Origin: Anolis carolinensis | Taxonomy: Eukaryota | Reading direction: 5' to 3' | DNA: 64,000 nt | NCBI RefSeq assembly: GCF_035594765.1 | Contig: NC_085841.1 | Location: 264,274,525-264,338,524, forward strand | In this document: in pieces, positions 17,915 through 55,050 of the stretch | Numbering within the stretch: position 1 is the first letter of the stretch | Layout: every line of letters starts with the position of its first letter | Made by a program: the position numbers and the translations under genes | Notes under the pieces: generated by a model | What the model saw: only the letters and a program-made list of their open reading frames with translations | Told to the model about the DNA's origin: nothing | The model's database searches: none

Positions 17915-18985
17915 AAATGATCAGGGGATTAAATGATCCTGGAGTGGAACAACTCTTACAGGAAGAAAGATTACAGCATTTTGGGCTTTTTAATGTTGCA
18001 CCCCAAGGTAGCGTGAGCACTCGAAAATGAGAACTCGTTAGCTCTCCCAAGAAATCAAGTCCGCGAAGTTAAACAGGGAAACAAGGCTGGTAAAAAACAG
18101 AGTTCTATTCACTGGAAATGCTTTGTAGCAATCAAGGTAAACAAGGCGTTAAAGCAGAGGCAAACTTGAATCAGGAACGAGAAATAACATCCGAAGTAAT
18201 GCCAGGGTCTACCTGAGAGTCGTGGCCTGGCGCAGCCCGACTGGAAATTGGAAACTTGGCTTGAACAGGAACTAGGAACAGAGAAACCTTTCTCCAGAAA
18301 GCATCATTGAAACCGCAAAGGAATCTACCAAACAATACACTTTTAACAGATTCTGGTCTGTTCAGAATTTGGGGAGTACAAACTGCCAAAACTTTCTCAA
18401 GGGAATGCTACGCATTTTCCCATCTGTTTGCCAGTCTCTGGCTGCGGCAAATTTCCTGTTTTGCCCTCCTTTGTCTAGTCACAAAATCTCTACGATTAAA
18501 CACTCCATTCCCAGGCATTTCTTCCACATCTGGCTCTGTCTGTGATGAAGGACTAGAAGAATCCTCCCCAATTAACAATTCTCCAATGTCAACATTTTCA
18601 GGCACCTGCAGCTGTAAAGGCCCCTCTGTGGAGGGTGCAATGTCAGTGAATTCCTCCTCATTATCTATGTCAAAGTGCAGGTCCTGAAACGCTGCAGGCC
18701 TTGGTGCCCTAGCCGGCTGGGACCTAACATTTAGCTTCACAACAAAGGAAGACACATAAGGTCTATGCATACCATTGAGAAAGTGGATCAGAGAACTGTT
18801 TCAGGTCTCTCCTGTAGTTTTAGAATGCAGGATAAACCAAAGAACTTTGGTGATGGGAGTGTGAAGAAATTTCAAAGAAAGTACAATGCATAGTTCAACT
18901 ATGAAGTTGGTTGCTGAAAGGTGTATTGATAGTGACCAGATTGGGTGGTTTTCAAAGGGAACAAATTTGAGGAAGATAAAGACCT
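17915..18985 (+). mobile_element. Ancient CR1 3' fragment split by a solo LTR
   Basis: atgatcaggggatt...ggaagaaagattacagcatttgggcttttt|tagc (the EERL..LGLFSL region) resumes after 18729. Confidence 0.55.
17994..18729 (-). mobile_element. Gypsy-type solo LTR (736 bp)
   Basis: TGTT...AACA termini and a 5-bp TSD tttaa/tttag that restores the interrupted CR1. Minus-strand TATA-like ttaaaa at ~18341-18346 and polyA-like aataga at ~18105. A 106-codon open frame runs from base 2 (18728 to 18408). Confidence 0.8.
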
Positions 18986-25005: not shown

Positions 25006-27984
25006 TAATACTCTGAATACTCATTTTAACCAAGTTCACTGCTTTAGCGCAAATAAAACTGGGTAGATTTATTATCAGAATTTAAGAAAACAGCATCTCC
25101 AAATACAGTGAAGAGTCTGTTTTAGTACTGTTCTCCTCAGTACTGCCAACTTAATGTTTCTAATGTGCCACGGACTGGTATCATATTTGTACTCATAGGG
25201 TACAACTCTTTCCTTTCCATCCCTCCCCCCTCCCCTTACCTTGAAATTTGTCAGCTGATGGTTTGCAGATCTGCACCAATCTACAGAGCAATATTTTCAT
25301 TCTGCCATATTACATTATAAAGTATTTGGGGATTAAATATTCACTACACAATGTAATCTCAACCCTCTTTGATTTGAGCTATTCCATACATTAGCAGGTA
25401 AAAACCTTGGTATCTAATCATATACACCAGGTCCTGTGTAGGAGATGTTGTTGAACTGCAGTTCCAATGAATGTACAGAACTGGGTACCCCTGTTACGAG
25501 CTGGTCATTGACCGTAATAAAAGTTTACTTACTTACTTACTAGAACTGCAGTTCCAGCAGCTCCTAGCCAGTGATGTAGAATGTTGGGAATTGCAGTCCA
25601 ACATCTGGAAGTACATGACTCCCATATCTAAGTTCATTCTGCCAAGAAAATCCTGGCTGAAAATCCATATTTCAAGAGCACCTATCTCTCCCTCCTGAAG
25701 GTGCCACATCTCAAGTTTCCATCCATCCTTCCTCCAGGCTTGAAGGTCAAGCATAAGCGTAACATTTCCAGAGTTATAAGAATTCATAGGTGCATTGTTT
25801 GCAGAGTGTTGACTCCGTAAATAACATGTCAATAATAACTTATTCTGCTCTTCCAGTTTTAACACTGTATTTATATTTCTATTATGAATGCTCTCCCAAA
25901 GGCAAAAAGTAAAGGCCAGATTTATTTTTCTTTTGCAATATAATATATCATTCCCCAGTAGGCTTATTTGTTCAGGTGTTGACCATTCTAATGATTTATA
26001 CAGAGAAGTCTGGTAGTGCTTTTTAACACCTACAAACTGGGAATGATAAACTCAAGAAGAATGATTTCAAAGTTAGAAAGGTCAAAGGAAGTTTCTTGTA
26101 CAAATAGAAAGGAAACCAAGAAGTGGCTTAATTGTGTGCTGTTGATACATATTTATTGGATTCAGCTTGTGGTCTCAAAAGTAAAAATTGCAAAGACATC
26201 TAAGAGGGTTGGCAGTTCAAGAAAAATATTACTTGAGGAAGGAATAGACACTACATTGGCCAACATACATATATTGATGTCAGATAGCATCAGAGTGTTG
26301 CATTCTTCCTTTACCAACCGAATATCCTCCACAAATACCTCCATCCTTGGGGCTTTTCACTTCATCTCAGCCTATTTCTAAATCTATAATCCTACTGAGA
26401 AATATGAAAACTGATAGGGTTTTATTGTTATTGTTAATTGCTATCAGATCAACTCTGTAAATGAGATACCTCCAAGTCACTTTGTTATCAGTAGAGCTGC
26501 CATGGCAATGGTCTACCATGCAGGAAGACCCAACCAAAGCATTCCCAACATGGAACTGCATGGAACTTCTTGACTGATTCCAAAAAGGAAATAAGACAGG
26601 AAATAATCATAGAGATGAACCATAGAGAGAAAACCATGGAGCTTGAAGTATAGGTTGAAATACACTCATAAAACAGGGAAACAACTATAAGGGCTGTAGG
26701 CGACAGTGTAATAAAAGTGAAAGTGGCCGAAGTGGGCACTACAACAAATCTTCACAAATTAGACATGGTTGTTTGTTTGTTTTTAAGTTGGCTTGACTAC
26801 AGAAATGACTGCAATGTCAACAAGACCAAGATTCAAGTATCAGAAATAAGCTTTCAGGAGAAGTTACTTCCACAAGAAGATCCATTGAGGGAAATCTTAA
26901 CCCAATTAAGAACCATTACAGATGGAATGAAAAATCTGGAGGTCAGGATTGACAAGAGAATTACACAGGCTGAAGAACATTTATGAAAAAAGAATATTAT
27001 GAGTTAAACAACCATAAAGAAATGGTCCCGTTAGCATTAAATGCTGAAAAGGCTTTCAATAATATCAACTGGATCTTTTTCCAAATTTTAATGAGCGAAA
27101 TGGACACGGGATATCAATTCCTAAATGCAATCAAAGCTATTTATGATCAACAGATAGCAAAAATTATGATCAATGGCCAAGAGGTCAGAAGCATTAAAAT
27201 AAGCAAAGATACCAGACAAGGATGCCTCTTATCTCCTTTAATTTTTATAATTGCAATGGAAATAATTTTAATTAATATCAGGGAGGACAAAAACTTGATT
27301 GGAACTAAAATAAGGAATAAATACTATAAAGTGAGAGCTTTTGGTGATGATTTAATTTGTGTTGTTGACAATCCTCTAGAAAATATAAAAAATGGACTAA
27401 CAAAATAGAAGAATTTGAAGATCTCTCATGCTTCAAAAAATACCAAAAAACCCTAATTATTTTAACCAAAATATACCAAAGAAAAGTCAAGAAGAACTAA
27501 AAGAGATTTCAGGACTACAAATATCAAACAAAATTAAATATTTAGGTCTTATGATTTCAGCAAAGAATTATCAACTTCTGAAAAATAACTATGAATTGAA
27601 ATGGAAGGAAATCAAAAAGGATTTGGAGAATTGGAAAAATCTAAATTTATCCTTACTAGGAAGAATTTCGACTATAAAAATTTACATACACCCAAAAATG
27701 TTATACCTATTTCAGAATCTTCCTATAATTCAAAATATAAGGATTTTCAAAGAGTGAAACAAGGACTTACCTAAATTTATCTGGCAGGGGGGGAAACCAA
27801 AAATTAAATATACAAACTTAACAAATGAGAATTTAACAGAAGAGAGGAGGCTTAGGCCTGCCAGATCTAAAAGTATACTTTGAAACTTGTGGTTTGACAT
27901 GGATAAAGGACTGGACAACACTTAATAAGAAGAAAATACTGATGTTAAAAGGTTATGATTTGAGAATCGGATGGCATGCCTATG

Positions 27985-28521
27985 TGTTAGGAATTTCTCT
28001 TCTTCAGAAGAGGAAGGAGAGCAGGAAAATGTTCATGATTTTGAGGGGGAGTTGGAATCTGAGGAGGAGATTTTGCAAGTACCCACATTTCAGAAGAGGC
28101 GAAAGAGAGCAGAGATGTCGTTCAGCTAGAATAGCTGCCAGAAATGCAGCTGAGTAATTGGGAACTGCCCTAGCAGCTGTGAGGGAACTCAGGGCTATAA
28201 AGCAGAAGCTAGGTGAAGTCAGCTTTTGCTGGTAACAAACTGACTCTAATGCCTAAGCCATCACTCTCCTTGTGCCTGCTTTGAGTTTGCATCTGGAAAA
28301 CTGTTCTTAAGGATTTATTGCTGTTTCCTTGTCTGAAGTAAGACTGCTACTTGATTTGAGAATTGATCAGAGACTTAAGAACTGTGTTTGCCCTAAGACT
28401 TCTTTGCTTTCTTTTGCATTATACCACTGAGTGTGCTGTTCTTTATGTTTTGCTGAAGTAAAGCAGTTTTCATTACTTACCACATTGTTTTAAGGCTGTT
28501 CTTGAAAAACAAAATAGGACA
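27985..28521 (+). mobile_element. Gypsy-type solo LTR (537 bp) inserted in L1 ORF2
   Basis: TGT...ACA termini, perfect 5-bp TSD ctatg (27980-27984, 28522-28526), TATAAA at 28196-28201 and AGTAAA at 28457-28462. The L1 frame GWHAY|VW resumes after it. Confidence 0.88.
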
Positions 28522-29314
28522 CTATGTCTGGTATGAAAAAACAAAAATAGAGAAAAAAATTGGAAACCACTTTATAAGATCTACTTTGGGAAAGATACAA
28601 AAAGAAACTTTATTCTAAAATAGCATTATGGATTTCTCCATTAGAAGCAGGAACAGGAGACTACTAGGGTGGGAGAAGTGGCCCACCTATAAAGAAATCT
28701 TGAAGAAATAAAAAGGGAATTCATGAGATGAAAATGCAGGAAGAGATTAATCTAAACTACGAAAATGTCTCTTGGTTCCAATAAAGACAACTAAGAAAAA
28801 ATTATAACAAAGGCAAAAATGGATTTACTGAAAAAGAAACATTCTGGGACAAAATAATGACAACAGATAAAAATTAATTACCAAAATTTACAAGAAGTTA
28901 CTAGAATGTTCAACAGATACTAAACAAGTCAAAGAATGCATGATTAAATGGGAAGCCAATATGCAGGTCAATAAAAATGGAAGAATGGGGCATATATGGA
29001 ACTACAAACTGAAACAAACATATGCATATGATTTGAAGGAAAATTGGTGCCAAATGATGTACTGGTAGTATATAAACTCACAAAAATTAGGAAAATATTA
29101 CTAAAAATGCAAAATAAATGTTGGAAATGTGGAAGTTAAGAAGGCACTTTATACCACATGTGGTGGATGTGTAGTAAAGCAAAGAAATGTTAGAAAGAAA
29201 TTCAAGAGACCTCATTAAAATACAATTGAAACCTGAATATTTTCTATCAGGAATAACAGATATGAAAATGGAAGTAAACAAAGTTGTACTTTTTGACTAT
29301 CTAGTAACTGCGGC

Positions 29315-45339: not shown

Positions 45340-45404
45340 GGGTGTTTGATTGTGCTTTAACTTCCTGGCAGAAGAGAGTTGAACTGGATGGCCCCTGGGG
45401 TTTC

Positions 45405-45438
<34 letters not shown>

Positions 45439-45967
45439 GGCACAAAGACTGGGTAGCCATCTGTTGGGGGTGGTTTGATTGTGCTTTTCCTGCATGGCAG
45501 AAGGGAGTGGACTGGATACCCCTGGGGTTGCTTCTATTATTATTTTATTGTATGACACAGCAAACAAGATAGATATGCTGGATTTCGTATCACAAAATCA
45601 CAAGTCGAACACTTCCCAAGTGTCTAAGACTGTGTGATGTATTTTCGGATGATGCGCGCAGGGGGTTGGACTGGATGCCCCCTGGGGTTGCTTCTATTAT
45701 TGTTACTACTACTACTACTACTACTAAGGCTGGGTGGCCATCTGTTAGGGGTGCTTTGATTTTGCTTTTCCTGCATGGCAGAAGGGAGTTGGACTGGATG
45801 CCCCCTGGGGTTGCTTCTATTATTGTTACTACTACTACTACTGCTACTACTACTACTACTACAAAGGCTGGGTGGCCATCTGTTGGGGGTGCTTTGATTG
45901 TGCCTTTCCTGCATGACAGAAGGGTGTTGGACTGGATGCCCCCTGGGGTTGCTTCTATTGTTGTTAC

Positions 45968-46008
<41 letters not shown>

Positions 46009-46098
46009 AGGCTGGGTGGCCATCTGTTGGGGGTGCTTTGATTGCACTTTTCCTGCATGGCAGAAGGGGGTTGGACTGGATGGCCCCTGTGGTCCTCC
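45340..46098 (+). repeat. Tandem array (~5 full units plus one partial, ~120-140 bp) of CR1 3'-end sequence separated by trinucleotide microsatellites
   Basis: Unit ggctgggtggccatctgttgggggtgctttgattg...gcatggcagaagggggttggactggatgccccctggggtt, with spacers (GTT)n, (ACT)n and (AGT)n. Confidence 0.85.
45540..45660 (-). mobile_element. Dong/R4-clade LINE 3' end
   Basis: The minus strand ends ARIIRKYITQS* plus a 3' UTR and a TAA-rich tail, inserted at a TAA-type microsatellite. Confidence 0.7.
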
Positions 46099-46274
46099 AC
46101 TGAAATATTGCTAAGTTTATGTTGGTTAAAACGTTTGCCCATGCCTGATATATACATATAATATATTATATATACGGTAATATAATATATAAACATTTAT
46201 TTGGGCTCCACAAGAAACCTTTGCTTCAAAAAGGGGCCTGCAGCTGAAAAAGTTTGAGAATCCCTGATCTAGAG

Positions 46275-54244: not shown

Positions 54245-55050
54245 CACCAAAGAGGAATTGAAACAAATAAACAACGCATGTAGGGAAAATGTCCAAAAGG
54301 CTAAAGCGCAAAATGAGCTCAAGCTTGCCAGAGAGATTCGAAACAATAAAAAGGAGTTATTTGGTTTTGTCAGTAGAAAAAAGGAAGAAAAAGGAGACAG
54401 TGGGGCCTCTTTGTGAAGAAGGTGATGAAATGCTAACAAAGTATAGGGAAAAGATGGAGCTGTTTAACACCTTTTTTGTCTCAGTCTTCTCCCAAAAGTG
54501 TTCAACCTGATGAATATGGAGTGGACAAGGTAATATAGGATATGCAACTTAAAATAGGTAAAGAAGTAATGCAGAAATACCTGACTATTCTAGATGAATT
54601 TGAGTCACGAGGGTCAGATGAACTACATCCAGAGTATTGAAGGAATTAGCAGAAGTCATTTTAGAACCACTGGCAATAATCTTTGAGAATTCTTGGAGAA
54701 CAGGGGAAGTCCCAGCAGACTGGAGGAGGGAAAATTTTGTTTCTATCTTCAATAAAAAAAATAAGAGAGGACCCAAACAATTACCATCCAGTCATCTTGA
54801 CATCAATACTAGGAAATATTCTGGAGCAGATCATTAAGGAGGAACATTTGGAAGAACATCCTGACCGTTAGAGCTGTTCAGCAGTGGAACTCTCTGCCTC
54901 ATAGTGTGGTGGAAGCTCCTTCCTTGGAGACTTTTAAACAGAGGCTAAATGGCCATCTGTCAGGAGTGCTTTGATTGTGCTTTTCTTGCATGAAAAGGGG
55001 TTGGACTAGATGGCCCATGCAGTCTCTTCCAACTGTTATTCTATGATTCT
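54245..55050 (+). mobile_element. CR1 fragment with a large internal deletion of RT
   Basis: KAKAQNELKLAR..., ELAEVILEPLAIIFENSWRTGEVPADWRR and EDPNNYHPVILTS..KILEQIIKE, then an abrupt jump at ~54842 to the 3' end with an (attctatg) tail. Confidence 0.88.

Follow-up and report, generated by a model that had tools for sequence, protein, structure and literature searches.

A putative chromatin-docking integrase tail encoded in the U3 region of a solo long terminal repeat of Anolis carolinensis

What is encoded, if anything, in the U3 region of a lizard long terminal repeat (LTR) that reads in one frame as an acidic peptide and, one frame over, as a basic patch resembling the nucleosome-binding motif of HMGN proteins? 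The question is raised by a solo LTR of 537 bp in a 64,000-nucleotide stretch of Anolis carolinensis DNA (contig NC_085841.1, positions 264,274,525 to 264,338,524 of the forward strand), hereafter the window, within which all positions are given. We consider the U3 peptide very probably to be the C-terminal tail of pol/integrase and not a free LTR product. To the further reading, which leans also on analogy with known proteins, we give a probability of about 0.5: the frameshifted U3 frame would be the integrase tail of a chromovirus-type Ty3/Gypsy element, whose R-S-x-R-I would anchor the integration complex on the acidic patch of H2A-H2B. The features of the LTR are as follows.

27985..28521, + strand: solo LTR of 537 bp with TGTTAGG...GGACA (TG...CA) ends, member of a high-copy family
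27980..27984, + strand: 5' target-site duplication (TSD), CTATG
28522..28526, + strand: 3' TSD, CTATG, a perfect 5-bp match to the 5' copy
27986..28099, + strand: acidic part of the predicted integrase tail, frame 2, with 12 D/E in 38 codons and no Met
28100..28105, + strand: copy-specific break, five bases shorter than most other copies, recognized from loose contig ends and from the gene model P0002
28104..28157, + strand: basic part of the predicted tail with its stop, frame 3, R-S-A-R-I core at 28119-28133
28196..28201, + strand: TATAAA box; the peptide code lies upstream of it, within U3
28457..28462, + strand: AGTAAA, candidate polyadenylation signal

We found that frame 2 of the LTR reads VRNFSSSEEEGEQENVHDFEGELESEEEILQVPTFQKRRKRAEMSFS* over 27986-28129, that is, 47 codons, and contains no Met ahead of the break. 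Frame 3 reads ...EREQRCRSARIAARNAAE*, with the stop at 28155-28157, 38 nt before the TATAAA at 28196. The preliminary description of this locus, which had reported an acidic frame 2, RSARIAA one frame over and a stop about 40 nt before the TATAAA box, is confirmed in these respects. The window copy itself reads CRSARIAA, the first Arg of the motif being replaced by Cys. At an E-value of 0.1, no Pfam family was detected on this peptide or on that of the second LTR of the window.

The break that separates the acidic and basic parts is private to this copy, as had been assumed. Contigs from four of the 24 listed runs were aligned to 27945-28560; loose contig ends were seen at 28105 in each of them (14, 40, 19 and 23 contigs), two runs had further ones at 28101 (48 and 24 contigs), and 95–97% of the aligned depth at 28105 differs from the window copy. 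Most family copies carry five extra bases at the break, which matches a one-frame shift; the event is a 5-nt loss near 28101-28105, and not the 1-nt frameshift originally proposed. A protein search using the LTR peptide, its two parts joined by X at the break, retrieved P0002 (one of 72 candidates), a SCAN zinc-finger gene model that holds a natural family copy, while a narrower search with the same peptide confirmed none of its candidates (0/1). In P0002 the frame is unbroken, the acidic tract running through ...QERRKETEQRCCSSRIAAGNAA, with ten residues at the break where the window copy has 25 nt. Family copies, in the four runs as in P0002, keep the acidic part and the motif in a single frame. 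The proposed origin of the TGT codon at 28116 from CGT is borne out as well: C accounts for 51, 57, 60 and 54% of the depth at this position in the four runs, and CpG-type decay is also visible at 28100, 28119 and 28120. The family copy in P0002, at residues about 160–212, is in frame and flanked by the SCAN domain and the C2H2 fingers; it represents either a true exonisation or a gene-prediction error. The ESM Atlas rows obtained for this segment, which were only sub-0.8 KRAB/SCAN matches, were rejected.

The window contains a second solo LTR, of another family, with a comparable frame.

17994..18729, - strand: second solo LTR of 736 bp, TSD CTAAA/TTAAA with one mismatch
18408..18728, - strand: open frame-2 peptide P0001 of this LTR, 106 aa, with RSQRL at 18446-18432

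The absence of obvious nucleotide similarity between the two LTRs, stated in the preliminary description, holds (best blastn match 27 nt, E 0.048). LQVP and a basic patch ahead of the motif are common to both peptides. No relatives of the second LTR were found in protein or viral collections: none of 81 candidates in the protein search was a relative of P0001, and the ESM Atlas returned no usable match. The sole phmmer match to P0001 among 1.84 billion representatives was to a repeat protein of bacterial type and was dismissed as a coincidence. In viral contigs, two patterns had 0 matches and two protein queries brought up no confirmed relative. A scan of the window requiring a perfect TSD yielded 10 TG...CA/TSD candidates, none of them a further solo LTR whose frame 2 is acidic, and RSARV at -33035, which shows no LTR features, was treated as a chance occurrence.

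Does this code require a protein at all? Purine-rich U3 promoter DNA could read as acidic or basic depending on the frame, in which case no protein would be made and the motif would be a coincidence. The U3 stretches are indeed 58–67% purine. Among 20000 dinucleotide shuffles per U3 stretch, those of the 537-bp LTR produced RSxR[LIV] in some plus-strand frame 721 times and an open frame 2 of 47 codons 1345 times; at least as many acidic residues in frame 2 as in the LTR itself arose in 44. For the second LTR, frame 2 stayed open for 106 codons in 90/20000 shuffles and contained the motif ahead of its first stop in 20/20000. In the window, RSxR[LIV] occurs five times in 127,996 six-frame codons, two of these in the two LTRs. 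Since the motif was chosen after the data had been seen, the shuffle figures are upper bounds on surprise. Against an explanation from base composition stand the open frame of the second LTR with its in-frame motif, the family copies, in which a single frame spans the acidic part and the motif, and the read-through seen directly in an intact tuatara element. We regard such an explanation as quite improbable.

That element is one of two lepidosaur chromoviruses printed by Kokosar and Kordis (2013), tuatara chromovirus-1 (AC154075) and an anole element (AAWZ01021304) (PMC3670739, supplement S2). Both were chosen without regard to the motif, and their residues were counted by eye. As printed there, tuatara chromovirus-1 is intact, with LTRs of 897 bp that are 99% alike and a 5-bp TSD; beyond the chromodomain, its pol stays open across the polypurine tract, enters the 3' LTR in T|GTA phase (...GGT-V) and continues for 101 codons, carrying RRSQRLEARR 23 residues ahead of the stop (PMC3670739). 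The RSQRL of this tail is identical to that of the second window LTR. The idea that the motif recurs in frame 2 of other LTR families thereby gains a third, independently chosen lepidosaur family, with RRSQRL in frame 2 of the LTR. Tuatara chromovirus-1 resembles the 537-bp LTR in phase, in the 5-bp TSD and in its LTR-encoded pol tail, the counterpart of the tail predicted here; it differs in belonging to another LTR family, in its Pro/Gly/Ala-rich tail and in the retained chromodomain. The anole chromovirus lacks a chromodomain and is known from its protein only, from which the LTR junction is deduced: ...VRGDS-VM is followed by a tail of 138 aa that contains 39 D/E as well as a basic patch and GRSQRC (PMC3670739). 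The same tail holds DEESFEGF (PMC3670739). Like the predicted tail of the 537-bp LTR, the long tail of the anole element is acidic; the element belongs to another LTR family, and its tail reads RSQRC. Thus, of the two families taken without bias, one has the full motif, for which its composition gives a chance expectation of about 2%, and the other has the acidic tract.

Acidic motifs of the form (E/D)xExFxGF bind the integrase-binding domain of LEDGF and related TFIIS N-terminal domains. The DEESFEGF of the anole tail fits this motif. The second window LTR has DNEEEFTDI at a similar position, without FxGF.

How ordinary is the entry of pol into the LTR? As a control, metagenome contigs were scanned for a chromodomain motif. 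The 92 matches fall into 35 groups that look fish-type or fungal-type; the junctions are pattern calls, and a terminal repeat was present downstream in four of the 12 long loci that were self-compared. A polypurine tract-TGT junction was called in 22 groups and not in the remaining 13. Base 2 of the LTR was in pol phase in 17 of the 22 (11 of which read into the LTR, while six stop 14 nt ahead), the other phases accounting for 5/22. The phase, which the preliminary description had counted as part of a shared layout, and the opening 'VR' are therefore ordinary, being explained by the usual pol-to-LTR geometry and a TGTYANR-type integrase end. Read-through tails are common among the controls, their content being unrelated and often of low complexity; RRSxR was found in 0/92 of the tails and an acidic tail in 3/92. 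Several side observations concern the same loci. The fish-type tails of L012 and L019 are acidic after the chromodomain and end in SEEY. The LTR-encoded ends of L045 and L069 finish in S-S-P-x-[FY], possibly a second conserved tail type. The fungal-type chromovirus region of L048 forms an exact 5-kb tandem duplication that probably arose during assembly.

The assignment to chromoviruses could be wrong. The LTR might come from another group (BEL/Pao, Copia, Mag, Gmr1 or endogenous retroviruses), or the peptide might be a separate U3 accessory product, comparable to nef or sag and translated from spliced RNA. A 5-bp TSD and TGTT starts also occur in BEL and Copia elements. TGTTRKR starts are reported for Mag A (PMC3601003). 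For Sushi-type elements the same source gives a TGTYANR...CNTNACA motif of the LTR ends, trained mainly on zebrafish; the TGTTAGG 5' end and the 5-bp TSD of the 537-bp LTR fit this pattern, its 3' end does not, and no internal region of the family surfaced in the protein searches. Against these origins speak the lack of a Met in frame 2 before the motif, the agreement in phase, TSD length, TGTYANR start and tail type with the two published lepidosaur chromoviruses as printed, and a fish-type chromovirus locus among the controls (L041) that begins with the identical TGTTAGG. We judge an origin outside the chromoviruses, or as an accessory product, to be very unlikely.

Given a chromovirus-type tail, what could the motif bind? 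HMGN2 contacts the acidic patch via R23, S24 and R26 of RRSAR, and AlphaFold 3 misplaces even HMGN2 itself (PMC12487698). In yeast Dot5, which carries RRSARIAT, R6, R7 and R10 are required for acidic-patch binding (PMC13347269). The R-S-x-R-hydrophobic core is common to HMGN (RRSARLSA), Dsup, Dot5 and the LTR tail, and family copies with an Arg codon at 28116 are identical over seven residues to the tested Dot5 motif (RRSARIA). Of the HMGN-like R-R-S-x-R-hydrophobic pattern, the 537-bp LTR has R-S-x-R-I without the first Arg, whereas the tuatara tail has RRSQRL. The full HMGN core RRSARLSA is not found in the window copy (CRSARIAA); the likeness is one of motif, and we claim no wider homology to HMGN. 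HMGN, Dsup and Dot5 are host proteins with demonstrated binding, in contrast to the LTR motif, a candidate encoded in retrotransposon DNA. Two retroelement systems are relevant in addition. The closest precedent is offered by plant CRM group A chromoviruses, whose CR motif, a targeting domain, is encoded by the 3' LTR (Neumann et al., 2011, PMC3059260). They are plant elements targeted to centromeres, whereas the window LTR would belong to a vertebrate element with an acidic tract and an HMGN-like RSxR, and we do not claim that it belongs to CRM group A. Entry of pol into the LTR of the CRM group A kind is seen in tuatara chromovirus-1 and in 11/22 control groups; for the 537-bp family we infer it. 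In foamy viruses, an arginine anchor of Gag on the H2A-H2B acidic patch tethers the pre-integration complex (PMC6042332); there the anchor lies in a retroviral Gag that is not LTR-encoded, while the candidate of the window would be an LTR-encoded integrase tail.

These comparisons suggest how the tail might work. A solo or 5' LTR would not express this code, which precedes the TATA box and offers no Met ahead of the motif. Full-length RNA would encode the tail as the end of pol, read via the polypurine tract into the 3' LTR, as shown in the relatives. After processing, the tail would form the C-terminus of integrase, where chromoviruses carry their targeting domain. If the motif works as in HMGN, Dsup and Dot5, which it resembles, integrase would be tethered to chromatin by contacts of the second Arg, the Ser and the anchor Arg with the acidic patch; such a tether would act beside or in place of a chromodomain. 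The acidic tract may be a disordered spacer or a second contact with a host factor, the least certain step of this scheme.

A more modest explanation accepts the pol tail and takes the motif for a generic basic patch, serving nuclear localisation, DNA or RNA binding or as a kinase site, or for a by-product of read-through. The motif is short, and we estimate by eye, from the tuatara composition, a chance frequency of about 2% per 100 residues in Arg-rich tails; unrelated, often low-complexity read-through tails are common among the controls, the tails cannot be aligned, and the anole chromovirus lacks the hydrophobic residue. On the other side, R-S-x-R-[LI] lies near the end of the tail in three unrelated lepidosaur-type LTRs, two of them with the identical RSQRL, RRSxR is missing from all 92 control tails, and the Arg-bearing form matches the Dot5 motif. 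We hold the generic explanation to be possible but on balance doubtful.

Several findings weigh against an acidic-patch anchor in a chromovirus integrase tail. No internal region, pol or chromodomain of either window LTR family surfaced in protein searches, and the internal flank of the 537-bp LTR was not among the loose ends listed in the four runs. The peptides of the two window LTRs show no significant alignment (best E 16, against the P0002 family copy), and at the position of the first Arg required by Dot5 each of the two window copies reads Cys. Only one of the two families taken blind to the motif has it in full, the anole element reading RSQRC. RSxR[LIV] does occur in control tails, in 5/92, all of one fungal-type group. 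The 3' end of the 537-bp LTR, TAGGACA, departs from the Sushi CNTNACA, a motif mainly trained on zebrafish. Finally, the five-part layout (phase, acidic tract, basic patch, motif and a stop before TATA), which the preliminary description had put forward as possibly lineage-wide, is not common to the two published elements as printed: the tuatara tail is not acidic, with 6 D/E in 101 residues, and its stop follows a TATA-like TACAAAAG, and the anole tail again departs at RSQRC.

As to novelty, pol read-through into the LTR is already known from CRM elements and is visible in the published lepidosaur sequences, where the tails and the motif go unremarked in the main-text passages of PMC3670739. 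In a literature survey that had Repbase, Dfam, subscription journals and several supplements outside its scope, we found no account of a retrotransposon whose integrase tail has an HMGN-like or acidic-patch motif, nor of a vertebrate tail encoded in an LTR. The chromatin access of vertebrate Ty3/Gypsy elements is poorly known, above all that of elements without a chromodomain. If the acidic-patch anchor is real, it would be a testable tether and would connect the integrases of retrotransposons with the HMGN/Dsup/Dot5 motif class and with foamy-virus Gag; U3 would be promoter and coding sequence at once, and solo LTRs would preserve a record of the integrase tail where internal regions are lost. 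Solo LTRs may then also seed motifs into host genes, as the in-frame copy in P0002 illustrates. We put forward tentatively, as a wider proposal that we consider rather less than even odds, that lepidosaur chromoviruses keep an interchangeable U3-encoded integrase tail of chromatin-docking motifs, an HMGN-like arginine anchor for the acidic patch or, in one anole element, an acidic FxGF of the LEDGF-binding type, which adds to or replaces the chromodomain. Such a tail would be the vertebrate counterpart of the CR motif of plants, and every solo LTR would spread a nucleosome-binding cassette that host genes can take up.

The genomic setting of the 537-bp LTR is an interrupted long interspersed nuclear element (LINE).

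26974..27984, + strand: decayed L1-type LINE ORF2, left part, a reverse transcriptase remnant (Pfam RVT_1, E 8.7e-11)
28527..28940, + strand: right part of ORF2 of the same LINE; the reading frame resumes after the second CTATG

The host frame reads ...GWHAY before the LTR and YVWYEKTK... after it, and because it resumes right after the second duplication, the ends of the LTR are exact. The LTR insertion is younger than the LINE at 26974-28940. We determined that the LTR family is abundant, with 850, 4255, 2187 and 2359 contigs in the four runs, and that past 28521 between 14 and 39 contigs per listed row continue into unlike 3' flanks, as dispersed copies do. The integrase-made TG...CA ends with their TSD, together with the dispersed multi-copy family, the TATAAA box and AGTAAA, identify the element as a solo LTR. 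The divergence of the window copy from its family is roughly 5–10% (40 of 64 substitution rows). Elsewhere in the window, a tandem array of units of about 138–144 bp with embedded triplet microsatellites extends over 45345-46106, and a related unit is present at 54938-54993.
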